Of a stretch of DNA of 20,000 bases, positions 1 through 20,000 are shown in pieces. Position 1 is the first letter of the stretch; every line of letters starts with the position of its first letter. The notes below the pieces were generated by a model. The model was given only the letters and a program-made list of their open reading frames with translations. It was not told the DNA's origin and ran no database searches. The stretch is from Pseudovirgaria hyperparasitica. Taxonomy: Eukaryota. The stretch lies in NCBI GenBank assembly GCA_010093815.1, contig ML996592.1; one strand, 5' to 3'. Position numbers and translations under genes: made by a program.

Positions 1-3000
1 ATAATATCTAAAGTCTTTATAATATAGATAAGATATTACTATTATATATAGAGGTTAGGGTATATAGCTAGATAGTAGTATATTATACCTCTCCGGCTAT
101 ACGCCTTATACTATAGAGAGATATTAGAAACGCCTCTCTTATAGAGGTAGTATAGAAGTTCTATAGTATCTATTCGGGCTTAGATAAGTATAGATACTTA
201 GGCTTTTATTAGCCCTTTATATATCTATTTACTTAGTTCCTTCTATAGTCCTTAAATCTACTCTAGATATCTATTCTACTAGAAGGTCTAGTAGATATAG
301 AGTATCTCTTTCTATTTATCTTAGATCTATAACTATATATTTTTTATAAGTTCTTAAAGACTCTACTAGTCTAGAAAAGTATCTAGGTTATCTTAGACTT
401 CTTATATTACTTAACTAGAGTCGGCTTCTATTAAGTATCTATACTATATTTAATTCTAGTCTATATATAGAAGTACGCGGTAATATATACTAATTTATAT
501 ATATAGTATAGTAAAAGTATATTCTATATTTTCTATATATTTCTATACTTATTATTTAGTAAAGTATACTACCCTCTATATCTAGTAGAAGTTATATATA
601 CTTATAATATTTATCTTACGTTATAGTAGTACTATGTTAGTAGCTTTATATATACCTAATATAAGATAGAGTATATAGTTCTATATAGATTTAAGCTTTA
701 TTTACCTAGTCTATATAAGGGCTATATACTAGTACTCGTGTCTATACGTGAAGGCGGGTCGTACTATAGATATATATAGCTAGCGTGCCTTATCCTAGGC
801 GGCTCTCTATATAGAGACTATAATCTATTATATAGCGGCTTCTATCTAGAGGGCCCTAGAGATAGTATATACTACTTATAGTTCCTATTTAAGCTTATTA
901 TCTAGTATAACCCTAAGTATACGTATACTCTATACTAGCTATTTATTAAATTTATTAATCTAGAGACGATATTTACCTTTTCTAGTTATCTATTTCCCTT
1001 AATAGTTAATAAAGTATATAAGCTAGTATTTCTCTAGAGCGAACTTTACTCTATAGTATTTTACCTACTAGAGATATCTCTTATAGTTCTATTCTAGTTA
1101 TCTATATATTTAGTTAGTATTATTATTAATAGCTAGAAGGTATATATTATTAGCATATCTAACTATCTCTATATACCTTATCTCTTAAAGAAGGTCTACT
1201 ATAAAGAAAAGAAATAGAATTAGAGAGATAGTACTCTCTTATAGAATACTATATACTATCTCTTTATATTTACTCTAGTATCTAGAGATATATATCTAAG
1301 TTATTCTTTCTATAAGAAATAACTATATAAAGCGTATAATCTATTCTAGTATTTATCTTATCTAGAGATTATAAATAAGTCTTATATAGTTTACTTTATT
1401 AAACGCTCTAGCTATATTAAGAGAGAGAAGTAATACTACCCGTCTCTATTTCTATACGGCCTAGACGACCTTAAGAATATATTAGATAGCTATTATTAGA
1501 GAGCTATCTATCTTTACCTTCTAGTTTAGAGAGAGAAGATTATATTTCTATACTACGGTACTTATCTTCTTTACTATTATAGTCTCTAGTATCTTATCTA
1601 GGTAGAAGAGAAGAACGATTAGTCTCTATCCCTTTAGAGAGTTAGAGCTCTTTTCTAGTTTTAGAAGTATAATAGTATAGATAACTTAGAAGCTCTAGGG
1701 GTAGTACCCCTATGTAATATATACTTAGAATATATAAGTAATAAGTAGTAGAGTTGCTTGTATAGTACTTTTTAGATATTAATTTAGAATTCTATCTAGT
1801 CTAGATACTTTATTATTTAGGAGTATCTTAATAATATTAAGTATATTCTCCTCTATAACTTCTTTAGAGATATCTACTATATATAGATATTTAGTACTAT
1901 AAATATCTAATAGATCTACTAGTTCTAGAAGAGAGAATATAGTCTTCTATAGAGTCTTAGTTTTCTTAAGACTTATAGAGTATATTCTTCTCTAATATAT
2001 TAGAGAAGGTATAAGTAGTAGGGGTATTAGAGTATCTACGCCCTTAGTCTATCTTACTATATACTATAGCTCTATTATATATTATATCTATTAACTAGTA
2101 ATTATATACTACTATTTACGCCTTTTATTATAGAGGACTTTATCGCGTTATTATATTACTTCCTTCTATTCTTTCTATAACTTAGGTATTCTTATACGGT
2201 ATACGTATATATATAGCCTTTAGATATCTTATCTACTTTTCTATACTTAAGGAATTCTCTTTACTTCTAGAGACTAGTGTATTTAGTATAGTATATATTT
2301 ATTTCTTATATTCTAGTATATTTATAGGAGTATCTATATAGCCTAGTCTATAGCTAGGTTATTAGATATATTAACTATAGAGGGATTTAGAATCGCTAAT
2401 TCTAGGTCCTTTAGATACTTTTCCTAGTTAGTATTCTTCTATATCTATTATCTCTATTATTTATTTAGAGTATATATATTTATTATAGTTTCTATATATT
2501 TATAGTCGGAATCCGTCTATATCTAGTCTAGATAGTAGTATTAGATCTAGTAGCTAATATACTCCGTAATAAAGGTAAGGTTAAGTATAGATCTATCTTT
2601 ATTCTATTTATATTTTTTCTATATAACTTATTCTATAGATATAAGTAGATATAGAAAGTTATAGTAACGGGTACGTAGTTCCCTTACTCTAAGTTCTTCT
2701 CTAACTACGGCTAGGTCTCTCTACTATTAGTAGTAGAGGTTAAAGTCTCCTAGAAGAATATATTACTCTAGTTTTATAGTACTCTTAAGTATCTTATCTA
2801 GTATAAGTATATATTATTAGTTATATATTATATATATATAGAGGGCCTATATCTATTTATAGGTATAGTATTATTCTAAGGTTATTATACTTAGTATATA
2901 ACTATAATAAGAGTAGTATCAACCTATAAATATAGAAGAGAACTTATCTTTCTAGTCCTAGGGGGTATATAGTATAGTATCTAGGGTATATAGTTAGTTT

Positions 3001-3133
3001 ACTTATCTAGTAGTATTTATAGAGTTCCTAGATAGTAAGTATTATAGCCCTAGTCTCTCTAAGAAGCGTCGCCTAGTTCTCTCTTTTATATTATATTTAT
3101 CTATATAATTTAGAGTATATTCTAGTCTCTTAT
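1..3133 (-). pseudogene. LINE copy 1 ORF2 (APE endonuclease + reverse transcriptase), RIP-inactivated, partial
   Basis: RT catalytic motif reads YANN at 1146-1157 (from YADD). Homologous to copy 2 ORF2, with many TAA/TAG stops and small indels relative to copy 2. Confidence 0.88.
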
Positions 3134-4581
3134 TAGATACTAGGGAGTATATATATCTATATACTTATTTCTTAGAGACGCGACTATCCTTACGCGGTAG
3201 CGGCTTTAACTATACCTTTTAGTTATTCTATTATCTTTAGAATAGTCTACTATTCTATCTAACTATCTTCTAGAGAGGAGGTTAGAGATATTATAAAGAA
3301 AGGGCCTATAGTAGATATTATATTCTATAACTATCTTATATCTCTTACTTTTATTATATAAATATATTCTATAATCTATTTATATTTTATATACGTTAAT
3401 AACTATAATAGATATTTTCTATTATAGTTTAAATACTATACTATATCTCTATTTCTTAGTCTATCTCCTTATGGTTTATAAGAGTATCTCTAGATAGTAT
3501 AGTCCCTACGGTACTATCCGCACTTAGTCTACTATAAATACCTTTATATAGTATATCTATACCCTTAATAGTTAAAGTACTATATTATTATCTATACTCT
3601 ATTCTATAGCTCGGCTATAAGAAGCTCTTCTTCTACTAGGAATCCCTTCTATATAATATATTATATAATAGCGGGGTCTTAGAGCTCTATAATTATAGTA
3701 GAGTGTTTTTTTACTATTATCTTAATTATCTATAGGTTCTTCTACTACGCTTTTATAATCTTAATCCCTAGATACTTTTATATATTAGATTATTCTATAT
3801 ATATAATATCCTCTACTCTAATAGTCTATCTCTATATAGATACTATATAGACTAGAATCGAGTATATAGCTACTCTAATAGACGCGCTAGGGAAGATACT
3901 ATCTATTATATTTAGATCTTATAAGATGTTTTACTATATAGTATTTATTATAGTAGTAAGTACTACTCTACCTTATATAACTTTAGTAGCTATAATACTT
4001 AACTATATTTCTTTCTATTTATTAATCTTATTTATAATTTTCTTTAGAGATATCTATTAGACCTACGCTAGTATATTCTTATTCTAGATTATAATATATA
4101 TACTATATACTCTATCTATGGTTCTAGTAGTCCTTAGTATAGTAGCTCCGGGTATTACTATAATCTAAGTCTATATATTAGGGCGCTTACCTTAGAATAG
4201 CTCTTTCTAGATTCTCTATAGACTAGCTTCTATTTAGTTAAGTCTACTACTAGGTTTCTCTTATAGTAACTTTCTTTCTTCTTCTATAATTTCTCTTAGA
4301 TTCTAGATAAGGTTCTAGAATATATAAAGAAGGGTCTTCTTTCCCTTCTTAGCGTCCCTCTCTATATATATTATTTAGTATTTAATTTTATCTAGAAGGG
4401 TCTCCTCTTATAGAGTTCCCTTAGTCTAGATTATCTATAGTACTTCGTACCCTTAGTTAGTTTCTATATTTTAGATAGGTATCTAGCTATCTATATTAAT
4501 ATTACTATATAGCCGTTTCTACTATACTAGTAGGGGTATATCTAGTATATACTAGGGTATTACGGTACCTAAGGCCGCTAT
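3130..4581 (-). pseudogene. LINE copy 1 ORF1 (gag-like), RIP-inactivated
   Basis: Homologous to 8413-9864; the start codon is ATA (4581-4579) where copy 2 has ATG. Confidence 0.85.
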
Positions 4582-4583
4582 AG

Positions 4584-4614
4584 TTATTAGTTAAGGGCTA
4601 CCCTTAACTAATAA
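4584..4614. repeat. 31-bp palindrome (14-bp arms, loop CTA) in the 5' UTR of LINE copy 1
   Basis: ttattagttaaggg-cta-cccttaactaataa is a perfect inverted repeat. Confidence 0.95.
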
Positions 4615-4841
4615 AAGGGAGTTAGTATATTAGCGTTTATTAGATATAGTCTATACTTATATTATTAAAGAGTCTTTAAGCGTATATATATAGTATCTCT
4701 ATATATTAGTATTATTATATATTATATACTATACGTATATACGTATAATAGAGGTTATTATACTTAGTATACTCTATTACTTAATGTATATAAATTACTA
4801 TTTTACCCCGAGTTAACTAGTCTAGTCTATTAGAGTATAAG

Positions 4842-4854
4842 AAGTAGATCTATA
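4842..4854. repeat. Left copy of a 13-bp direct repeat (putative target-site duplication) flanking LINE copy 2
   Basis: aagtagatctata, identical to 10134-10146. Confidence 0.7.
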
Positions 4855-5089
4855 ATAATAATAATAATATTATATAACTAGGTAGAGTAGTACTCTATAG
4901 GCCTATGCCTTCTCTAGTCTAAGCCACTATATAAGAAGAAACCCCATAGGGAAAAACTTCCTTATGTCTATAACTACATCTCGTTAAACCTCTATTTCGT
5001 CTTAAGTATATAGCTATAGGGTACGCCTATTAGTCTATAGCCTATATTACTATTATTTCGCCCTTAGGTAGCACGTGTAGATGCGGAGG

Positions 5090-5120
5090 TTATTAGTTAA
5101 GGGCTGCCCTTAACTAATAA
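5090..5120. repeat. 31-bp palindrome (loop CTG) at the 3' end of LINE ORF2
   Basis: ttattagttaaggg-ctg-cccttaactaataa; arms identical to those at 4584-4614 and 9867-9897. Confidence 0.95.
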
Positions 5121-8100
5121 TTGGGGTTCTCCCGGGGTTCTTCCGGTATATATTAGGTTACTACCGGCGTATACCGGGTCTCTTCCGGTATATATTTCTA
5201 GGTCCACTAGTACTAGAGGAGTGGTAGATATGTAAGTATCTATTAGGAGACGTCCTTAGGGTACTTATTAAGCTATCGTATAATATCTAAAGTCTTTATA
5301 ATGTGGATAAGCCATTACCGTTATATATAGAGGTTAGGGTATATAGCTAGATAGTGGCGTATTATACCTCTCCGGCCGTACGCCTTATACCATAGGGAGA
5401 TATCAGGAATACCTCTCTTATAGATATAGTATAGGAGTCCTATAGCGCCCGTTCGGGCTTAGATAAGTATAGATACTTAGGCTTTCGTCAGCCCTTTATA
5501 TATCTATTTACTCGGTTCCTTCTATAGCCCTCGAATCTACTCTAGATACCTATTCTACTAGGAGGTCTAGTAGGCACGGAGTGCCTCTTTCTACTTATCT
5601 TAAGTCTATAACCGCATGTTTTTTACGAGTTCTTAAAGGCTCTACTAGTCTAGGAGAGCGTCCGGGTTATCTCGGACTTCTTATACTACTTAGCTAGAGT
5701 CGGTTTCTATTAATCACCTATACTATATTTGATTCCGGCCTATATATAGGAGTGCGTGGTAATATATACTAATTTATACACGTAGCGCGGCGAAAGTATA
5801 TTCTACGTTTCCTATATATTCCTATACTTATTATTTAGTAAAGTATACCACCCTCTATATCTAGTAGAAGTTATATATACTTATAACGTCTATCTCGCGT
5901 CGTAGTAGCACCGTATTAGTAGCTTTATATACGCCTAATATAAGACGGAGTATACGGTTCTATATGGATTTAAGCTTTATTCGCCTAGTCTATATAAGGG
6001 CCGTATACTAGTACTCGTGTCTATACGTAAAGGCGGGTCGTGCTATAGATATATATAGCTAGCGTACCTTATCCCGGGCGGTTCCCCACGTAGAGACTAT
6101 AATCTATTATATAGCGGCTTCTATCTAGAGGGCCCTAGAGACGGCGTATACCACTTATAGTCCCTATTTAAGCTTGCTATCTAGTATGACTCTAAGCGCG
6201 CGCATGCTTTATACTAGTAGTTCGTTAAACGCGTCGATTCGGGGGCGTCGTTCGCCTTCTCTAGTTACCTATTTCCCTTAACGGTTAATAAAGTGCATAA
6301 GCTGGTATTTCTCCGGGGCGAACTTTATTCCGTGGCGTTTTACCTACTAGAGGCACCTCTCGTGGTTCTATTCTAGTCGTCTATACGTTCGGTTAGTATT
6401 ATTATTAATAGCTAGGAGGTATATATTATTAGCGTATCCGACTACCTCTATATACTTTATTCCTTAAAGAAGGTCTACCATAAAGAAGAGGAATAGAATC
6501 AGAGAGATAGTGCTCCCTTATAGGATGCCATATACCATCTCTTTATATTCGCTCTAGTACCTAGGAATATATATCTAAGTTATTCTTCCTATAAGGAATA
6601 ACTATATAAAGCGTATAATCTATTCTAGTATTCGTCTTATCTAGAGGTTATAAATAAGTCTTATATAGTTTACCTTATTAAACGCTCCGGCTATATCGAG
6701 GGAGAGGAGCGATACTACCCGTCCCTATTTCTATGCGGCCTAGACGACTTTAATAATATATTAGATAGCTATTATTAGGGAGCTATCTATCTTTACCTTC
6801 TAGTTCGGAGGGAGGAGATTATATTCCTATACCGCGCTACTTATCTTCTTCACTACTATAGCCTCTAGTATCTTATCTAGGTAGGAGAGAAGGGCGATTA
6901 GTCTCTATCCCTTTAGAGAGTTAGGGCTCTTTCCTAGTTTCGGGAGTATAATAGTATAGATAACTCGGAAGCTCTAGGGGTGGTATCCCTACGTGACGTA
7001 TGCTTAGAATATATAAGTAATAAGCGGTAGGGTCGCTTTTATAGTGCTTTTTAGACATCGATTTAGAATTCCATCTGGTCCGGGTGCTTTATTATTTAGG
7101 AGTGTCTTAATAATATTAAGTATATCCTCCTCCGTAACTTCTTTAGGGATATCTACTATATATAGATATTCGGCGCCATAAACGTCTAATAGGTCTACTA
7201 GTTCCGGGAGAGGGAACATGGCCTCCCGTAGGGCCTTAGTTTTCTTAAGGCTCGTGGAGTATATTCTCCCCTAATATATTAGGGGAGGCATAAGTAGCGG
7301 GGGTGTCGGAGTATCTACGCCCTTAGCCTATTTCGCTATACGCCATAGCCCTATTACGTATCGTATCTATTAGCTAGTAATTATACGCTACTATTTACGC
7401 CTTTCGTTACGGAGGACTTTATCGCGTTATTATATTACTTTCTTCTATTCTTCCTACGACTCGGGTATTCTCATACGGTATACGCGTATATATAGCCTTC
7501 GGGCGTCTTATCTACTTTCCCGTACTTAAGGAATCCCCTTTACTTCCGGGGGCCGGTATATTTAGTATAGTACGTGTTTATTTCTCGCCTTCTAGTATAT
7601 TTATAGGAGTATCTATACGGCCTAGTCTATAGCTAGGTCGTTAGATATATCGACTATAGAGGGATCTAGAATCGCCGATTCTAGGTCCTTTAGGTACTTT
7701 TCCTAGTCGGTGTCCTTCTATATCTATTATCCCCGTTATTTATTCGGGGTATACACGTTTATTACGGTTTCTATATATTCATGGTCGGAATCCGTCTATA
7801 CCTAGCTTAGGCGGTAGTATTAGATCTAGTAACTAATATACTCCGTGGCGAAGGTAAGGTCAAGCGTGGACCCGTCTTCGTCCTATTTATATTTTTTCTA
7901 TATAACTTATTCCATAGGTATAAGTAGGTATAGAAAGTCGTGGTAGCGGGTGCGTAGTTCCCTTACTCTAAGTTCTTCCCTTACCACGGTTAGGCCTCCC
8001 TACTATTAGTAGTAGAGGTTAAAGTCTCCTAGAAGGATGTGTTACCCTAGTTCCGTAGTACCCTCGAGCATCTCGTCTAGTATAAGTATATATTATTAGT

Positions 8101-8416
8101 TATATATATTATATATATATAGGGGGCCTATATCTATTTATAGGTGTAGTATTATTCTAAGGTTATCGCGCTTAGTATACGACCATAATAAGAGTAGTAT
8201 AGACCTATAAATATGGAAGAGGACTCGTCTTTCTAGTTCTAGAGGGTATATAGTATGGTATCCGGGGTATATAGTTAGTTTACTCGTCTAGTAGTATTTA
8301 TAGGGTTCCTAGATGGCGAGTATTATAGCCCTAGTCTCTTTAAGGAGCGTCGTCTAGTTCTCTCTTTTATATTATACGTTTACCTATATAATTTAGAGTA
8401 TATTCTAGTCCCTTAT
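5093..8416 (-). pseudogene. LINE copy 2 ORF2: APE endonuclease, reverse transcriptase and C-terminal Zn finger; no RNase H seen; RIP stops
   Basis: One frame of ~1100 codons. Motifs: ILAI*EP (APE), KAPGPDGI (the supplied ORF 7004-7219 is a fragment of this frame), *RLIALLSYLDKILEA, GIL*GSTISLILFLF, YANN at 6425-6436 (YADD), and LI*ARTGAIGL followed by a degraded CCHC-type finger. Exact start and stop are inferred. Confidence 0.92.
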
Positions 8417-9864
8417 TAGGTACTAGGAAGTATATATACCTATATACTTATTCCTTAGAGGCGCGACTGTCCTCGCGCGGTAGCGGCTTTAACTATACCT
8501 TTTAGTCGTCCTATTATCTTCGGGATAGTCTACTATTCTACCTAACTACCTTCCGGAGGGGAGGTTAGGGGTGTTATAAAGGAAGGGCCCGTAGTAGGTA
8601 TTATATTCTATAACTATCTTACGCCTCTCGCTTTTATCGTACGAATGTATTCTATAATCTATTTATGTTTTATACACGTTATTAACCACGACGGGTATTT
8701 CCCGTCATAGTTTAAATACTATGCTATGTCCCTATTTCTTAGTCCGTCTCCTCGCGGTTTATAAGGGCACTCCTAGGTGGCGTGGTCCCTATAGTACTAT
8801 CCGTACTTGGTCTTCTATAAGCACCTTTATATAGTGTGTCCATACCCTTAATAGTTAAAGTACTATATTATTATCTATGCTCTATCCTATAGCTCGGCCA
8901 TGAGGAGCTCTTCTTCTACTAGGAATCCCTCCTATATAATATATTATACGAGGGCGGGGTCTCGGAGCTCTATAATTATAGTAGAGTGTTTTTTCGCTGT
9001 CGTCTTAATCGCCTATAGGTTCTTCCACCACGCTTTCACGATCTTAATCCCTAGGTATTTTCGTGTGTTGGATTATTCCATGTACGTAATATCCTCCGCA
9101 CCGATAGCCTATCCCCGCATGGGTACTACGTATACTATAATCGGGTATATGGCTACCCTAATAGACGCGCTAGGGAAGATGCTATCTATCGCGTTTAGAT
9201 CTCGTGAGATATTTTACTACGTAGTATTCGTTATAGTAGTAAGTACTATTCTACCTAGCGTAACTTTAGTAGCTATAACGCTCGACTATATTCCTTTCTA
9301 TTCGTTAATCTTATTTATAATTTCCTTTAGGGATACCTATTAGACCTACGCTAGCGTGTTCTTATCCTAGATTATAACACGTATACTATATGCTCTATCT
9401 ATGGTCCTAGTAGTCCTTAGTGCGGTGGCTCCGGGTATTACTATAATCTAAGCCTACGTGTTAGGGCGCTTACCTTAGAATAGCTCTTTCTAGATTCTCC
9501 GTAGGCTGGCTTCCATTTAGTCGAGTCTACTACTAGGTTCCTCTCGTGGCGACTTCCTTTCTTCCTCCGTGATTCCTCTTAGATTCTAGATAAGGTCCCG
9601 GAATATATAAAGGAGGGTCTTCTTTCCCTTCTTAGCGTCCCTCTCTACACGTATTACCTGGTATTTAATTTTATCTAGGAGGGTCTCCCCTCTCGGGGTC
9701 CCCTCGGTCTAGGTTATCTATAGCGCTTCGCACCCTTGGTTAGTTCCTATATTTTAGATAGGTGTCTAGCTATCTACATTAATATCGCTATATAGCCGTT
9801 TCTACCGTACTAGTGGGGGTATATCCGGCGTCTACCGGGGTATTACGATACCTAAGGCCGCCAT
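8413..9864 (-). pseudogene. LINE copy 2 ORF1, gag-like nucleic-acid-binding protein with three CCHC knuckles, RIP stops
   Basis: ATG at 9864, 484-codon frame. ~8670-8870 reads YFNY*GYGHTI*RC / YG*YYRDHAT*EC / YLNYDGKYPSWLITC, i.e. de-RIP CX2CX4HX4C-type knuckles. Confidence 0.88.
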
Positions 9865-9866
9865 AG

Positions 9867-9897
9867 TTATTAGTTAAGGGTAGCCCTTAACTAATAA
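9867..9897. repeat. 31-bp palindrome (loop TAG) 2 nt upstream of the LINE copy 2 ORF1 ATG
   Basis: ttattagttaaggg-tag-cccttaactaataa. Confidence 0.95.
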
Positions 9898-10299
9898 AAG
9901 GGGGTTAGCGTGTTAGTATTTATTAGATATAGTCTATGCTCGTGTTATCGAAGAGTCTTTAAGCGTATATATATAGTATCTCTATACGTCGGTATCGTCG
10001 CGTATTATATACTATACGTACGCACGTGTGTTGGAGATTATTATACTCGGTGTACTCTATCGTTTAATGTGTGTAAATCGCTGTTTTACCCCGAATTGAC
10101 TAGTTTAGTCCGTTGGGGTGTAAGAAGTTTTTAAAGTAGATCTATATAATATAATAGAAATAGTATAATATTAAGTTATAATCTATTAAATTAATAGAGA
10201 TTAGAAGAATATCCTTTAAGAAGATTAAAGAGATATTTATAACTACTCTATTACTAGTATACTTTAATCTAACTAAATCTATTTATATTAAAACTAATA

Positions 10300-10309: not shown

Positions 10310-11179
10310 TTAAGACTAGATATACTATTTATAACTAAGAGCTACTAGTAATAGTAGAGTTATTTAAGTAGTAGTAATATTATCTTAAAGATACTATATA
10401 TAATATTAAGTTACTAACTAATTACTATAACTTAAAGGAGTTTAGAAGTATAATAGTTTTAAATTATTAATAGATCTAATAGACTAAGTAGCTTATAAAT
10501 TTCTACTTTATAATCTACTATTAATCTAGAAGTATAAATCTAGCTAATAGAATATTAAGAAGATCTAACTATAAAGAAGGCGTCTAGAATTATAGTAGCT
10601 ATAGAGTTCTAGAGTAGCTATAGATCTAACTCTTAAGAATAAGGTTAGATAATAAGTTATCTAATAATTAGTAAGATACTAATACTAATACTAGTAATAG
10701 AATTTATAAGACTAAAGCTAGTAACTAAAGATATAGTACTAAAGTCTCTAGTAAGCTATTTATTAGCGCTATTAGAGAGGGCGATAGTACCTAGTATATA
10801 TATTAAGTAGATCTTATCTAGTTAATTATAGATCTATAAAAGATAGATCTAATAGTTTTAAAGTTATATAAAATATAGTAAGATAGATTATTATAGACTA
10901 AAGTAGACTATAAGTAGACCTTTATAGATAGCTTACTCTACTATAATAGAAAGTATTATATACTAATAGATAATATATAATTTACTATAGTTAGCTAATA
11001 CTATAATACTAATCTAGTAAGATATTTGAGGTATATACGTACCCTAAGCTTAATTTATTAGTACTATTTTTAGAAAGATATATCTAAGTATATTAAAGAA
11101 TAGATAGCTACTTATCTAATTTATTAAAGAATAAAGGTACCTAGATATAAGCTATATAGAAATTTATAGTCTCTACTAG

Positions 11180-11319
11180 TATAAGGAGGCGGGCTCCACG
11201 CACCAACCAACTATACTAAAAGGACCGAATCTTAAAGCTACTACTTTAAGGGTGGAGCATACTACTTATATACGACTACTACACACATGTATAATTAACT
11301 AGTAGGCACGTGCCTAACA
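11180..11319 (-). mobile_element. 140-bp solo LTR inserted in the Gypsy A integrase region, 5-bp TSD ACTAG
   Basis: actag at 11175-11179 and 11320-11324; termini TATAAGG (de-RIP TGTAAGG) and CCTAACA. Removing it plus one TSD restores the frame SLLVPLFI*KDIIIDF. More GC-rich than its flanks. Strand inferred from the termini. Confidence 0.85.
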
Positions 11320-12949
11320 ACTAGTCCCTCTCTTTATATAGAAAGATATTATTATAGATTTTATAGTTAACTTACCTTTAAGTAAGATACTTAGAATAAG
11401 TTATAATTTAATTCTTATTATTATAGATAGACTTATAAAGATATCTAGATATATCTCTATATAGAAGATAATTATATTAAAAGAACTAGTATAAGTATTC
11501 TAGAATAAGATTATTAAGGTCTATAGTATACTAAAAAGAATTATTATAGACTAAGGAAGTATATTTAAATCTAAATTCTAGATATTATTCTATAAAATAG
11601 CTAGTATAAATAGAAATATATTAATAGTATTCTATCTATAAATAGATAGTTAGATAGAATAATAGAACTAAATACTTAAGGCCTATCTTTATATATTCTA
11701 TAATTTTAAATAAGATAACTAGGTCTCTCTACTAAGTATAGTAGAATTTATATATGATAATAGTTATTATAGTATAATAGGTATTACGCCCTTCTAGGTA
11801 AATCTAGAATATAGTCTAAGAATAGATTTTAAACCTTATATAGTTAAGTTTAACTAAATAATAGATATTAATATCTATATATAGAAACTAGTAATTAAAA
11901 TCTTCGAAACTATATATAACTATTATATAATAATCTAGAAAGTAAATAAGTTATATATAAAGTACTATAATAGATTAGTTAAAGATTAAATATATAAGAA
12001 GAAAGATAAAGTTCTTCTTAATATCTATAATATATAAATATTATAAGTAAATAAAAAGCTTAATTATAAAATGGCTAGTCCCTTCTAAATTATATTTTAT
12101 ATTAGTATAAGAGTCTATAAGCTTAACCTAGGAAAATATATAAAAGTCTATAATATATTCTATATCTTATTACTTAAAAGGTTTTAATCTAATATATATA
12201 ATTATATAAACTTATAATTATACTCTATTATACCCTAAGATAGACTAGATATATATAAAGTAAACTATATTATTAAATATAGACTCGATAAGAATAGTAT
12301 CTAGAAGTATTAAATCTATTAGAAGAACTATACTAAGAATAAGAATATCTAGAAACCTATAGTATATATCTTAAGTACCGTAATATCTATATATAAATAG
12401 AGGTTATAGAATAATATATTACTACTATAAACCTAGTACTATTAGAGCTATTATAAAAAGAAGAAGAATACTATAGAGAATAAAGTATTAAGTTATAAAT
12501 CTTAAATATATACTAGGAAAACTCTATAAGATAGCCCTATAATTTAAGTAATATATAGTTACTAAACACGAAGAAAATATAAATAACTATTATAGATATA
12601 TAATATAATATATTATAATAGAATAATATAGAAAAGTCTAGAATAGACTAATATAGACTATTATATATAAGAAAAATATAGAACTAAGAATCTAAAAAGG
12701 TACCCTACTATAGAATTAAACTTATAATATATAATATAAAAAGTTAGAGTATCTAAACTAATAACTACTAGACTACTAGTTTAGATACTCTAATGTAATT
12801 TAGAGAGATAAACTAATTTATATATAATATCTATACTTTAGTAACTAAAAGAAAATTAGAATCTAGAATTTAATAGTTATAGAATAAATAAGAGTATATA
12901 TAATATTATTAAGTTAAGAATTAAATTACTAGAAAACTAGTAGATAGAT

Positions 12950-14349
12950 ATTTAAATAGTCTTAAAAGAACTAAAATAGATAGAAGCTAGATAAATAGAG
13001 CTAGTATATACCCTATAGAAACCCTAGTATATAAAGCTATAGAGCTACTTCTCTATCTTATTCTTACTTTTAAAGTATAATAAATAAACTAGCTAAGTAA
13101 TAAAGTAGCGGAGGTCTAAGATCTTATTCTCTAGAGTAACTATATACTTAGTTAGAGTCTAGTAAGATAATAACTAAGTACTAGAGTAGAGTAACTAGGC
13201 CTAAAGTTAGCTAATATAGTCTAGAATAATCTAGAATAAAATATATACCTTCTTATAAGGTAACTTAGAAGAAGAAATAGTAGATCTCTTATAAGATCTA
13301 TTAGTAGTATAAGATAGATAGAAGAAGATACTATAAATCTCTTTAATAGTCTTAGTAGCTAAAACTAACTCTCTAGAATAGATAGTCTAAGTACTAGAAA
13401 TCTTATAGTAACTAAAAATTATAAGCTAAGGTCAAGAGTAATTAATAGTTTCTAAACTTATACTTTAATAATCTCTAGAAAGAGCTTATAGTACTCTCTA
13501 AACTCTCTATATATAGAGGCTAGATAACTACTAGAACTACTAAGAGTCTTATAGATATAAAGATTATTATATATATCTTATATATAAATAGAAATCTAAA
13601 AATATATTAATATAGATAACTTTAGATTACTCTAGACTAAAATAGTCTAATAGACTAATCTAAAGATAAACTTTACTAAGAATAGTATAGTAGTAGTAGT
13701 AAATAGATAGTTTAAAGATTAAATATATAGATCTATTATAATTAGTAGAGTAGTAGCTAATACTAGAGTTAGAGTAGAAAAGATACTTAGAGCTAGTTAT
13801 ATAAGTCTTAATATACTTAAAGTATATTAAACTATAGTTTACTATTTTCCTATAGTATAAGCTATAACTATATTTAGTATCTTTAGTAATCTAGACCTTA
13901 TTATTAGTAGAGCTAGACTTAGAATAAATAGTAAGATTCTAAAAGAATCTAGAATAACTAAATTAGTCTATATTAGACTAGAAAGAGAAATAGTATTTAG
14001 AGTAGAGTAGTAAGAGTATAAACTCTTAATTATTATCTATAATAAGATCTTCTTTATTCTCTAAAGAAGATAGAGTAGATAAATAGTATAAAAAAGTATA
14101 AGTAGACTTTATAGCTACTTCTTCTATAATATTAGTACTAGAATTATCTAGATTAGAGTAATTAGTAGCTATATTAGTAGTAATAGTAGTAGTAGTCTTA
14201 GCTATCTTCTTCTCTAACTTAGAATATATCTTTATACTACTATAATAGATAGATTTTTTAGATAGTATAGCTAGAGTAGAGATAATCTCTTTAGAGTAAG
14301 TATTATAAGAGAAGAAGATAGACTTAGAAATAGAACTAGTATTAGATAT
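12950..14349 (-). pseudogene. Probable additional antisense ORF in the Gypsy A 3' region, unknown function
   Basis: Stop-poor, protein-like minus-strand stretches, e.g. ISNTSSISKS...KLEKKIAKTTTT...LENKEDLIIDNN and YKRSTISSSKLPYKKV...LENKILDLRYF. Boundaries and frame continuity are uncertain. Confidence 0.5.
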
Positions 14350-14824
14350 CTATATATATATATTAGCTAGAGATCTAAGAATAGAATACTTATTTAGTCT
14401 TAAAGATAATTAGAAAAGCTAAATTAGTAACTATAATAATATAAATAGATTATATAGAACTAATTCTAATAAGAATAGACTACTCTAGATCTAAATAGAT
14501 CTAAACTAAAGAAGATAGTATATAAATTAATAACTTATCTTAAGAGTAAGATAGATATACTAGAGAAGAAAATTTAGAATAAGAGAACTAAATATAAGCT
14601 TAGTTAATATAGTAGTTATATAATCTACGGAGCTATCTCTAAGATAGTAGCTAGAAAGTAAGAGATAAGTATATATATAAGTTAATAAAAGTAAACTAGA
14701 GTTTTAAGTTTACTAATATAAAGGCTATTAATAATATTATATAGATTTACTTAGATATATATATAAATATAATACTTATAGAATTATAGATTTATATATA
14801 GTTAAGTACTTTAGAGTAAAGTAT

Positions 14825-14838
14825 AAAAAGAAGAAGAA
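14825..14838 (+). promoter_or_regulatory. Polypurine tract of Gypsy A
   Basis: aaaaagaagaagaa, 3 nt upstream of the LTR. Confidence 0.7.
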
Positions 14839-14841
14839 TAT

Positions 14842-15082
14842 TATTAAAACTAGTACTAGAATAGACTTAACTAGACTACTATAGTCTAGTATAGTTCTAT
14901 AATAAATAGATCTAGATTGAGTTAGCTAGATTAAGTAAGAGTACTATATAAGTAGACTATATATACTTAATTCCTACTCTTTAGAAATTAATCTTATTAT
15001 AAGAGTAGACTATTCTTTTAAATATATTTCTAAATTCTTCTATAATCTATTAGACTACTATTCTATATCTATAATTCTTATA
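14842..15082 (+). repeat. 3' LTR of Gypsy A (~241 bp)
   Basis: Aligns end to end with 16878-17117, mostly via transitions; termini TATTAAA...TCTTATA are RIP forms of TGTTAGG...CCTTACA. Confidence 0.88.
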
Positions 15083-15453
15083 TCTAGAGAAGAGTATATA
15101 GATAAAAAAAATACGTAGAGACTTAATACTAACTATATTAACTAATATTTAATAGTATATATATATTTAGACCTTATATAGCGATAAGTATATAATAAAA
15201 TACTAGAATATATCTATCTTATATAAATTTAGGTAGGGGAGACATAGCGCGATATCCGAATACTAAGAGAGTTAGGTTCTAGGTAAACGATAAATTATAG
15301 TAATATAGTATTTAAAGACGTACTTTTACTCTCTATATTTCAATCTCTTACTAAAAAGAAGTTATTAAGATATACTCCCGAAATAAACTACTCTAATAGT
15401 AGCTATATTAAAGAATAGAAGATAGATAGAGACTTAAGAAATAGAAGAAAGCT

Positions 15454-16716
15454 ATAAGTATTTTAAGTAATCTAGTAGTAAAAGTAGTTTATATAATCTC
15501 TATTCTCTCTATACTATATCTTACTACCATTGTATATACTATTCCGGCCGTACTAGAGGTATCTAGCTACTATATTTATAAGAAGGTAAAAGACCATAAT
15601 TATAAGAAGATAAAAAACCATTAATCTTATAAAATAGAATAGAGAAATAAAGAGAGATATAAAGAAGTAATAGAAATCGTACTACTACCCTAGCGCTTCG
15701 AAGAGTTAGTATATAATAATAGAGTATATAGTTTTAAAGAATTGCTTGACTTTTCTATGCCGGTAGATAATCCGGTAGTTTACTTAGAGTAGTTACTAGG
15801 TGCTTAGAAAGATACTCTAGTAGTATTACCTAAGTAGTTATCTAGGCCTCTAAATCTATAAAAGATAATAGAGGTATTATTATTTTTTACTATACTTCCT
15901 TTTAATATCCGCTTTATAGTATATAAGCTCGTGTATAGTAGCTACTATTTATTACTTTAAACTAGACTTAGAGGCCTCTATCATCTAATTAGAAGGTAGC
16001 TATATATAGACTATTCTATATAATTATCTACTAATATATTAGAGTAGCTATTAGTACTAGTCTAATAGATCTTAATCTAGTACTAGCTATATTCTAAGTC
16101 TAACTATATATCTTAATAAGTACCCGTTAAATCTAGATAATTAGAATCTTAAGCTACTACTTACTCTAAGAAGAGACTATATATATATATATATAGCCTT
16201 ACTACTCCCTTAACTATCTACTATTAGATATAAGATAAATCTATTTATACTATAATAAGATTCTAATTATTATAATAGATATTAAGAGTCTATCTATATA
16301 CTCTATAGAACTAATATATTTAACTTCTAGATTTATATAGAGCTACTACCTTCTTTCTTAAACTTTATACTACTAAAGAGAATCTATAGTATCTATAAGA
16401 TTTCTATTATTACTACTATAGTAGATATTATAAATAAAGATAATAATTAGAATATTTTATAGAGTTTATAAGGGCTAGTAGAACTATAAATTATTATTAT
16501 AGATAATATACCTAAGTTAGCTAGCGATAATCTATTCTTTATTAAATAGTTTAAGAGATCTAAGAGCTTAAGGGTCTTAGAAGTATAGATTCTATAGGGT
16601 TTAGATAAGAGACTAGAGTCTATAGTAGAAGAAAATAAGTAGTAATAATAGATTATAAAGTATATCTTCTAGTATAGTAAATAAATATCTAATATTACTA
16701 TTAATAATCGGGTATA
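15454..16716 (+). pseudogene. RIP-destroyed host-type fungal gene (F-box-like/DUF7730-type uncharacterised protein) with a 49-nt intron at 16230-16278
   Basis: Single frame from ATA (ex-ATG) at 15454: a hydrophobic N-terminus, then FFTILPFNIRFIVYKLVYSS, then PLTIYY*I / intron / Y*ESIYILYRTNIFNF. The intron has ataag (ex-gtaag), branch ctaat and terminal tag. The family name is from motif memory, and the stop position is approximate. Confidence 0.68.
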
Positions 16717-16877
16717 ATAAAGGTATAACTATATCTCTTTCTATTACTACTACTAAGGAAAAAGTAAATTCTAGTAGAATTTATATTGGGTTCCGCTTAA
16801 TCCTAGTTAATATATATAATATATATACCTTTTAGATTACTCTCTAGATATATAGTTAAACGTTACTAGTTACTATA

Positions 16878-17117
16878 TGTTAGGGCTAACACTAGGATAG
16901 ACTTAACTAGAATACTATAGTCTAGTACGGTCCGTGATAGGTGGACCTAGGGTAAGCTAGCTAGAATAAGCGAGACCACTATATAAGTAGACCGCATATA
17001 CTTAATTCCTACTCTTTAGGAATTAACCTTATTAGAAGAGTAGACTACCCTTTTAAATATATTCCCGAATCCTCCTATGACCTATTAGACTACTATTCTA
17101 CGTCTATAATCCTTATA
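16878..17117 (+). repeat. 5' LTR of Gypsy B (240 bp)
   Basis: TGTTAGG...CCTTATA termini, TATATAAG box at 16980-16987, homologous to 14842-15082. Confidence 0.9.
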
Positions 17118-17317
17118 TTTTAATTCCTCTTTATATAGCACGATAGTAGTTTATAGAAATAGCTCTAACCACTCGTTATAATACTCGTGGCACTACCTCT
17201 TATAGTAGACCTTCTCCTAACCTAAACGAGGAGAATAGTCTACCTATAACTACCTCTACTAATAACTATACCTTATAGGCTATCGTACCGATAACTCGTA
17301 TAATATTCCGTATAACT

Positions 17318-18541
17318 ATGGAAGATATTATAGAACACGAGGATAGAGTCTATTATACTCTATCTTAGTCTAGTTCGAACTATACTAGACCTAACCTTAA
17401 TACGAGGCTAGACCATATTAATATTAACGAGTTAATCCGTTAGAATCGCCTAACGTTAACTATACCTTATAACGATATATATACTAGACTACACGAAGAG
17501 AGGTAATAATAGGTTTAACTCGAGTAATAACTATATGAACTCGACGAAGCTTAAGGACGTACTACGAGACTTAAAGCTATATTATACGCTTTAGTTCTAG
17601 TAATAACTAATCTATATTTATATAGACCTATACTAACTAAAACGATCTATCCTAGTCTACTACTATCCTAATTACCCCGATCTAAGAAACTACCTTACTT
17701 CGATAGTAAAAGTAGAAAGAGTTTCCATATATAGACTTACTAATATAGCCGATTCTTCTATCTATTCACGAACGATAGCGATAAAATTAGATTCGCCTAG
17801 AACTACCTCGACCCGACGCCTTTAGAACGTTAGATAGTATACTAAATCGAATATCCTAAGGATGCCTATAACTAGGACACGTTTACCGAATTTCTTCTCT
17901 AATGTTTTAGCGATAGGGCTAAACGATATAACTAGGCCTAGGGCTATATCTTCGAGACTCGATAACGAGATAATTAGTTACTATTATAACTCCTTAAATA
18001 CCTTCGGCCCCTCTAGAGAGAAGCCGAAGAAGATCGTATAATTTAATAGTACGATAACTTTAAATAGTCCCTCGCCCTAAATATAAAGGACCGTCTCGAC
18101 CTTATAATAATAATCTCTATAGACCTCTAAGCTCTTATAAACCTCGCGGAGCGATACTAGCGTATAATGAATAATTAACGCCGCGCTAGTACACGACTAT
18201 CTCTAACGATCCAATCTAACGTAAAATCGTCTAACTAAAACCAATTTAGTAATAGATCTCGCGGGACATCACGAGGCTACTACCATGCCTTAAATTCAAA
18301 ACCACGCGGATCGTATTGTGGATCTCCCTACTAATTAATATATTAAGATATAAGGACCGACTTATATAAATAACCTAAAGTTACTTACTATACCTATGGT
18401 AGAATAGACTATATAGCACCTAAGTACTATTTAGGGAAGCTACTAAGTGCTAATATAACTAACTAACTAGTCATATACTATAAGTGCTAGTAGCTAGGAT
18501 ATATCGCGCCTAACTACCTAGTATAGAATATAAAAAACTAA
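17318..18541 (+). pseudogene. Gypsy B gag with two CCHC zinc knuckles, RIP stops
   Basis: ATG 17318 to TAA 18541 in frame (408 codons). Capsid-like DKIRFA*NYL...N*DTFTEFL; knuckles YYTYGRIDYIAPKY and YYKC**LGYIAPNY. Confidence 0.85.
18532..18538 (+). promoter_or_regulatory. Putative -1 ribosomal frameshift heptamer A AAA AAC
   Basis: Directly before the gag stop; the protease frame is -1 relative to gag. Confidence 0.7.
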
Positions 18542-20000
18542 TAGCCTACGAGAACCCCTTGCGACTTATAGATATAACTATAATAGAGGGGTAATCCGCT
18601 AAATAGTATATTAAACTATAGGCTAGACCTATCGAGGTCCCTTATAGATAATATTAGACTATAATACTTAATAGTAGATCGGCTACTAACGTTATATCGA
18701 CCTAACAAGCACGAGAACTTAACACCGATATCCAAGCTCTAATAGGTGCCATGTTCTATAGTATCGACGGTCCTATTAAGTTATACGGTACCTATACTAT
18801 TAAATATAGTATCTAGGATAGCGGAGGGAAATAGAAACTCTACTACTTAACCTTTATCGTGGTAGATAGTCCCTTTAATATAATTCTAGGTATACCGTAG
18901 CTTAAGAAATATAACCTAAAACTAGACTTCCTTAAGAAGATAGCTAGCTAGCGTATAAACCTACCTTAATAGAATTTACTTAAAGTCTTAATTCTATACT
19001 TACTCGCTAAGCGACTCTAATAAATATACTCTAAACACTTATCGGACTTTACGAATACCACTCTATAAGTTAAACTATATTTCTTATAGAACGAGTAAGG
19101 GAAAGGTATTTCATTACCCTTATAATTAATTAAAATAGATAAAGTAACTCTCCGTTTTACTAGATTAGATTTAGAAGGCTTAACTAATTTTATAACTCTA
19201 GGTATAATAGAAGAAAAGGAAGAAGAGCTCCTTACTAAAGAAAATTAGAATAACTCCCTACTTATAAGTAACTATAGAAGTACTTTAGAACGAAGTACCT
19301 TAGGAGGGGCATTATATAATAAATCACTAGCTAGAGCCGTAGAAAGATACGTAGACTCTAGCACGAGTAGTATAAAAGATAGTATAATATATAGAAGGGG
19401 TACCTATAATATAATAGATAGCCCTAGGTAGTAACCTAAGGCTAAGATAGACACCTATAGGAAGAGCTAATTATAGGTACTTAGAATAGGTATTCTAAGT
19501 AACCCACCTAGTAATTAGGAATAGAATATTAGTATTCTAAGTAACGCACTAAACGCTTAGAATAAGTATTCTAATTAAAGAACCTTAGCCGAACTATATA
19601 GACCCTTTAAACGTAACCTCTAGAGATAGTTCTATAGTAATTAATTTAAACTTATACTACTATAATTACTACTTCACTTGCCTACTAGCTAGTTACTATT
19701 TATACCCTATTAATACTTACTATAAACCTACTTACACCTCTTAGAGCCTTCTAAGTACCTTTATCTATAGAAAAGCCGGGACACCCTATAGAACGGACTA
19801 CTTTAGGGATAAGCCATACCCTTATCAAGGAAGGTTTATTATATAATCCTCTACTCTTTTCTACTAAAGTATAATATATTTTATTTAGAGAATAATATCT
19901 AGACTTATAATTCTATAATTAATAGAATAGATAGAAGGAAGTATAGCTACTATCTACGATAACCTAGAAATATTTAGCTATATTTATACTAAATACCCTT
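18538..20000 (+). pseudogene. Gypsy B pol, N-terminal part: aspartic protease plus long linker; RT not reached
   Basis: ILNSRSATNVIS at ~18664-18699 (LDSG-type motif) and NIILGIP*LKKYNLKLDF (DxILGMPWL) at ~18877-18930. Confidence 0.85.

Follow-up and report, generated by a model that had tools for sequence, protein, structure and literature searches.

A perfect 31-bp palindrome occurs three times in a 20,000-nt stretch of the Pseudovirgaria hyperparasitica genome (contig ML996592.1; the whole stretch analysed is here called the window), where it accompanies two copies of a long interspersed nuclear element (LINE). We found that a Tad1-type LINE, and also an unrelated Gypsy element, carry this palindrome internally as an inherited component; its positions, its inheritance, its conservation and the absence of recombination products were established. 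Our preferred reading, to which we assign a probability of 0.35, is that it acted as a self-pairing RNA module, in which one copy would either fold into a local hairpin or form a 31-bp duplex with a second copy. The module would have belonged originally to the LINE 3′ end, from which the Gypsy element would have acquired it. The palindrome itself is real and well bounded. The three matches listed in a preliminary description of the window were exact (Table 1), no match was obtained in 200 shuffles of the window, and no other perfect palindrome in the window has arms of more than 12 bp.

The first 10 kb of the window consist of two head-to-tail copies of a 5.28-kb LINE on the minus strand (period 5279-5283), which are 84% identical and carry strong signatures of repeat-induced point mutation (RIP). 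When LINE copy 2 was translated through its stops, matches to reverse transcriptase (RT) and endonuclease families were obtained (PF14529, PF00078), and the zinc knuckle of open reading frame 1 (ORF1) gave a weak match to zf-CCHC. The best homologs were fungal, with 29-42% identity. Furthermore, 12-21 bases were common to both element ends in 12 of 12 other LINE copies, and duplications were also present in the window copy and in L067, a RIP-free copy described below. With its domain layout, target duplications and 3′ repeat tail, the element is an apurinic/apyrimidinic endonuclease (APE)-type, Tad1-like LINE; the clade name is a tentative one, given from the domain layout.

According to the preliminary description, the palindrome lies 2 nt before the ORF1 start in both LINE copies. 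The ATG of copy 2 is indeed at 9864-9862, 2 nt past the palindrome, and the equivalent codon of copy 1 (4581-4579) reads ATA. The in-frame stops reported inside the 3′ palindrome of copy 2 are both present, the second being a TAA at 5095-5093. The 3′ palindrome of copy 1 was located just left of the window (L016:9811-9841) and has one mismatch. Since the LINE ends are marked by target duplications and an (ATT)n tail, the palindromes are internal and not terminal repeats. They lie ∼235-240 nt inside each LINE end; the stretches outside them each measure exactly 240 nt in L067 and ∼235-238 nt in the window copy, and no similarity beyond 10 bases was detected between the 5′ and 3′ untranslated regions. 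The bracketing of the coding region proposed earlier is supported as a fixed and conserved arrangement, seen at ORF1 starts, in five subfamilies and in relics, but not as a terminal repeat.

A RIP-tolerant pattern search revealed 484 palindrome sites in the P. hyperparasitica genome. The sites were sorted by eye on nine flanking bases, whereby 472 sites were counted and 342 listed, three lists being complete (242 sites) and the fourth holding 100 of 230. Among the matches listed, 341 of 342 sites belonged to four fixed retroelement contexts, namely the LINE 5′ site, the LINE 3′ site and two places in a Gypsy element. Perfect Gypsy sites, 61 in the middle and 66 at the end, make up about 127 of the 484, and the motif is therefore not confined to LINEs. 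A fifth context is an imperfect Gypsy site with the spacer CAATC, which is present in 62 copies near the start of the gag frame. Elements always carry two or three palindromes. A LINE-only recognition signal for the proteins ORF1p and ORF2p, as suggested in the preliminary description, does not explain the three fixed Gypsy places.

When ORF1 starts were located with a palindrome-free query, 30 of 30 carried the palindrome exactly 2 nt upstream (the window copy being one of them), so the motif is not missing from the 5′ end. All 21 two-ended LINE copies had both palindromes, although this count is biased because the copies were selected by their palindromes. A free micro-element spread independently through the genome, such as a miniature inverted-repeat transposable element, had been raised as an alternative; it was rejected in view of the four contexts that hold nearly all listed sites, the occupied ORF1 starts and the lack of empty sites. 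Outside this genome, the palindrome was found neither in metagenome contigs nor in viral contigs, and the single match in prokaryotic genomes was near chance. Distant Tad1-type elements were without it: it was absent from 80 distant LINEs (the nearest relatives obtained, 23-44% identity), where one core match with four mismatches fell outside any landmark. Hairpins of at least 10 pairs were likewise seen at none of 22 ORF2 stops and none of 9 ORF1 starts in distant LINEs, counted at loci with an intact stop or start. On these comparisons, the palindrome is lineage-specific. There were no Rfam matches above the gathering score in four RIP-free loci, and no published description of the palindrome was found in the literature searched, which was largely without subscription journals and supplements.

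The Gypsy host is an 11.4-kb element with 364-bp long terminal repeats (LTRs), RT, RNase H and integrase. Its middle palindrome is situated at the break between protease and RT, 9 nt before the sequence TAA-ATG in 19 of 19 aligned copies, and its end palindrome coincides with the end of a dioxygenase-like ORF. The first site lies ∼500 nt after the LTR, inside the open gag frame. Homologous RT-RNaseH-integrase proteins start in 20 of 24 cases at query residue 929-1033, and the Gypsy ATG corresponds to residue 986, so the ORF break is typical of the clade. The layout of this clade (P0124-P0147), in which the RT-RNaseH-integrase ORF is mostly separate from gag-protease (20/24), is unusual. The extra ORF after integrase (L094:3003-4940, G000:C8) is 35% identical to a PhyH-like dioxygenase, and only two homologs of it were found; it has no Pfam or PDB match of its own and is called PhyH-like by homology and atlas features. 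It ends at a TAG in the same palindrome register as LINE ORF2, and the middle and end palindromes share the LINE 3′ flanks GA..TCCG. The centre was flipped at none of the 127 Gypsy sites. In addition, an orphan site (G000:C47:11014) has the RT of a third Gypsy element, a chromovirus-like one, that stops precisely within a LINE 5′ palindrome, a junction indicating that LTR sequence can acquire the module from a LINE. At L046:5997-7500, a RIP-free chromovirus-like Gypsy RT adjoins a 49-bp fragment of the LINE 5′ palindrome region, and a 9-bp inverted repeat flanks this fragment.

Conservation of the palindrome was assessed among 21 long LINE copies, which form five groups that are 2-9% apart in transversions. 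Across these subfamilies the only differences in the arms are of RIP type, except for a single inserted base, and the orientation of the centre differs between groups. Background invariance among the five subfamilies is already 85%, so conservation at this level alone is modest evidence. Old relics provide the stronger evidence: L047, L095 and L066 retain 30, 26 and 27 of 31 palindrome bases, respectively, as compared with 36, 29 and 20 of 54 bases upstream. A comparison of eight sites with little or no RIP gave a core of 10-bp arms and a 5-bp spacer of three types, with arms of 10-14 bp in all and no mismatch. Searches for a central G/C and for spacers of 6-10 bp found no sites. Single-base arm variants that are not of RIP type, one in the L067 group and one in L066, are both A>G opposite U on the sense strand. 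In two spacer types (GCWGC, and GATTC in relic L066) even the bases flanking the central one are symmetric. As these bases are unpairable in a hairpin, a simple stem-loop accounts for their symmetry less well than a duplex or recognition of a dyad would. Some elements break off or are duplicated within the palindrome, which may have been a breakpoint (L096:5230, L074:1509, L077:428).

The ancestral form was read from the RIP-free copies, namely L067, a deleted but otherwise open LINE with an ORF2 of 923 aa that overlaps ORF1 at AUGA, and the 3′ fragments L047 and L048. Their palindrome is TTATTAGTCAAGGG-CWG-CCCTTGACTAATAA, the 3′ copy of L067 having one A>G, and the ancestral arm as read from these copies is TTATTAGTCAAGGG. 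None of the 19 least-mutated arm matches has a C at arm position 5, and L047, L048 and L067 have a T there. Therefore, the first TAG (palindrome positions 5-7) is the natural ORF2 stop, and the ancestor envisaged previously, with a C at position 5 and an ORF2 ending in TGA TAA, can be discarded. Two RIP-free LINE copies, L067:892-5912 and L098:2937-5259, lack the same 270 bp of ORF2 and have a common A>G in the 3′ palindrome, a variant found at four places. They probably represent a non-autonomous lineage that was mobile after its deletion. At arm position 9, a RIP change was present in ∼98% of arms (C kept in 17 of 968); where this 5-base context occurs in eight LINE copies the figure is 91%, a marginal difference. 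Lastly, the old LINE 3′ relic with palindrome at L066:4996-5100 lies between two convergent host genes, whose sequence motifs suggest a Myb/chromodomain-like and a Zim17-like gene.

In the reading that we prefer, the palindrome would have originated at the LINE 3′ end, as the divergent 3′ relics and the LINE 3′ flanks of the Gypsy sites suggest. A duplicate would have reached the LINE 5′ end prior to the divergence of the subfamilies, and the Gypsy element may have captured the palindrome from the LINE through template switching. Copies within a transcript could pair 5′-to-3′, or copies in two RNAs could pair with each other, conceivably assisted by the zinc-knuckle chaperones ORF1p and Gag, and the paired palindromes may serve ribonucleoprotein assembly, dimerisation or circularisation. 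RNA pairing involves no family-specific protein, and the same module could therefore be useful in both LINE and Gypsy; we prefer this reading because no shared protein is required. The location at ORF edges would be due to the tolerance of coding sequence to insertion there. The duplex of two palindrome copies has a predicted energy of -49 to -54 kcal/mol versus -36 kcal/mol for two hairpins; a duplex more stable than the hairpins is expected of any long palindrome.

Several observations weigh against a self-pairing RNA. The compensatory arm changes that the preliminary description proposed to look for did not appear, as 0 of 14 pairs had changed on both sides (8 sequences, ungapped alignment), and support from G-U pairs amounts to two variants. 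In two LINE subfamilies the 5′ copy is fully complementary to the 3′ copy, which is not so in the Gypsy element or wherever both centres are oriented the same way. A dimeric DNA-binding protein would explain the fixed 5-bp spacer no less well. The Gypsy TAA is universal (19/19), but four other comparable positions are universal too and a RIP origin is possible; the stop before the RT ATG is ambiguous because RIP saturation confounds the mapping of universal stops. A 31-bp duplex could also feed Dicer, to the detriment of the element, LINEs are not known to need RNA dimers, and all element copies examined are dead or deleted. No joint between two palindrome sites was seen in contigs from sequencing runs, a result that carries no weight.

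Self-complementary RNA signals that pass from a hairpin to an intermolecular or long-range duplex are known from Ty1 (PAL and CYC5/CYC3). Such signals, among them the retroviral dimer initiation site (mentioned in PMC5445492), share this property with our palindrome, but they are short, occur once or as a pair close to the 5′ end, and have a self-complementary loop; none is known to us in a LINE or common to two element classes. The CHS of GalEa (PMC5445492) resembles our palindrome as a fungal retroelement hairpin that is part palindromic, more conserved than its surroundings and common to distant families in one species. However, the CHS is Copia-only and single, and it abuts the 5′ LTR, where it replaces the primer site, with 9-bp arms, a loop of 12-41 nt and a conserved A/A mismatch. 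Our palindrome is instead a perfect 31 bp without mismatch, has 10-14-bp arms around a 5-bp spacer, resides in LINE and Gypsy hosts with two or three copies per element at ORF edges, and first appears in Gypsy well past the LTR. Stringent-type LINE 3′ stem-loops (UnaL2, ZfL2, SART1; PMC5135761) similarly start a conserved LINE 3′ block, and Tad1 figures there among LINE/SINE pairs (SINE, short interspersed nuclear element). Those stem-loops have a bulged stem and a recognised loop near the 3′ tail, whereas the palindrome has a perfect stem, a variable loop and no conserved bulge, lies ∼240 nt from the end, and is found again towards the LINE 5′ end and within an LTR retrotransposon. Tad1-clade LINEs share the ORF1 zinc knuckle, the endonuclease-RT ORF2, the target-site duplications and the repeat tail, but the 80 nearest LINE relatives obtained lack the palindrome. 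The Gypsy host, for its part, resembles fungal Ty3/Gypsy elements in its LTRs and its gag-protease-RT-RNaseH-integrase content.

Nearly as likely as a self-pairing RNA is a DNA site for a homodimeric protein, host- or element-encoded, that binds the 10-bp arms across the 5-bp spacer and activates, insulates or de-silences both families; LINE and Gypsy would then share the palindrome because they use the same factor. Such a site would account for arms that are kept while the spacer varies in type but never in length, for centres that differ in orientation among subfamilies, and for an identical palindrome in unrelated element classes. The PhyH-like ORF of Gypsy and an analogy with the VANC anti-silencing proteins of Arabidopsis (PMC5735166) point the same way. 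However, all 30 sites of a relaxed search were inside elements or relics and none was in a host promoter, RIP was not locally reduced near the palindrome (observed/expected 0.89-1.06 at all distances), and no DNA-binding protein was identified in LINE or Gypsy. Moreover, fungal transcription factors recognise shorter sites than the 25-31 symmetric bases present here.

We consider it rather unlikely that the palindrome folds locally into an RNA hairpin and thereby regulates translation where ORFs begin or end, through start selection, stop-restart coupling or shielding from decay. Starts or stops do occur at four of the five sites, two unrelated ORFs share the TAG register, and the predicted hairpins are stable (z -3.8 to -8.3). 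The middle Gypsy site, close to TAA-ATG at a clade-typical break, recalls victorivirus reinitiation, for which PMC5972666 describes upstream structures. On the other hand, the palindrome has stops in two of its three frames, and its mere insertion can therefore bring about an overlap with a stop; the LINE's own AUGA junction of ORF1 and ORF2 lacks the palindrome. The loop is not conserved, pairing with the 18S ribosomal RNA of this genome was not above that of shuffles, and the first Gypsy site is inside an open frame. Of the four functions offered in the preliminary description, an RNA pairing site and a dimeric-protein site are retained as candidates. A splicing role for the ACTAAT in the 3′ arm, which resembles the branch-point consensus, was rejected, since inspection by eye revealed no consistent acceptor after the five sites.

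No better odds are given to a functionless, self-repairing palindromic passenger that was copied to five tolerated places and amplified with its hosts. Its use as a breakpoint in L046, L096, L074 and L077, the high background invariance of the subfamilies and its absence from distant LINEs would be expected of a passenger, but its retention in relics with decayed flanks, the three separate fixed Gypsy places, and the lack of both empty ORF1 sites and free copies would not. Slightly more doubtful still is a combined scheme in which LINE RNA pairs with Gypsy RNA via the palindrome and rides Gypsy particles, or in which the LINE takes advantage of an element-encoded anti-silencing system common to both families and made up of a dyad site and the Gypsy dioxygenase. 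Excision or inversion of a coding cassette by a site-specific recombinase acting on a lox-like site, as a fixed-length dyad flanking coding blocks with variable centre orientation might suggest, is largely refuted and very improbable: the complete lists (242 sites) held no Gypsy excision, inversion or LINE-Gypsy hybrid, the LINE 5′ flank had one non-cognate partner (the C47 orphan), the ORF2 flank had no recombinant-type partner in 13 matches (loci examined for 7), and no Gypsy site was flipped. The 130 sites outside the listings were covered by these two flank searches.

The features of the window are compiled in Table 1. Its remainder (10310-20000) is a mosaic of other repeats, heavily RIP-mutated and without the palindrome.

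Table 1. Positions of the palindromes and LINE features in the window
Feature	Position	Strand	Remarks
Palindrome, LINE copy 2, 5′ site	9867..9897	.	2 nt before ORF1 ATG (minus strand)
Palindrome, LINE copy 2, 3′ site	5090..5120	.	its nt 5-7 are the ORF2 stop TAG (5116-5114); also in RIP-free L048 and L067
Palindrome, LINE copy 1, 5′ site	4584..4614	.	centre oriented opposite to copy 2; start codon RIP-mutated
Full-length Tad1-type LINE copy 2, RIP-inactivated	4855..10133	-	inserted directly upstream of copy 1
ORF1, zinc-knuckle protein	8413..9864	-	RIP stops break the frame; 483 aa in RIP-free L067
ORF2, endonuclease and RT, no RNase H match	5114..8416	-	RIP stops break the frame; AUGA overlap with ORF1 in L067
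5′ untranslated region	9898..10133	-	without ATG in RIP-free copy
3′ untranslated region	4855..5089	-	conserved block of ∼45 nt following the palindrome, plus (ATT)n tail
Target-site duplication, one copy, 13 bp	4842..4854	.
Target-site duplication, other copy, 13 bp	10134..10146	.
LINE copy 1, more heavily RIP-mutated	1..4845	-

The cis signals of LINEs are generally held to be distinct from those of LTR elements. A single exact module at five landmarks in both classes would imply a shared factor, or a pairing trick that is useful to any retroelement. The palindrome may thus provide a 31-base handle on ribonucleoprotein assembly, downstream ORF expression and silencing resistance in fungal retroelements and, should it be a passenger, it would still be a clear case of sequence exchange between element classes.

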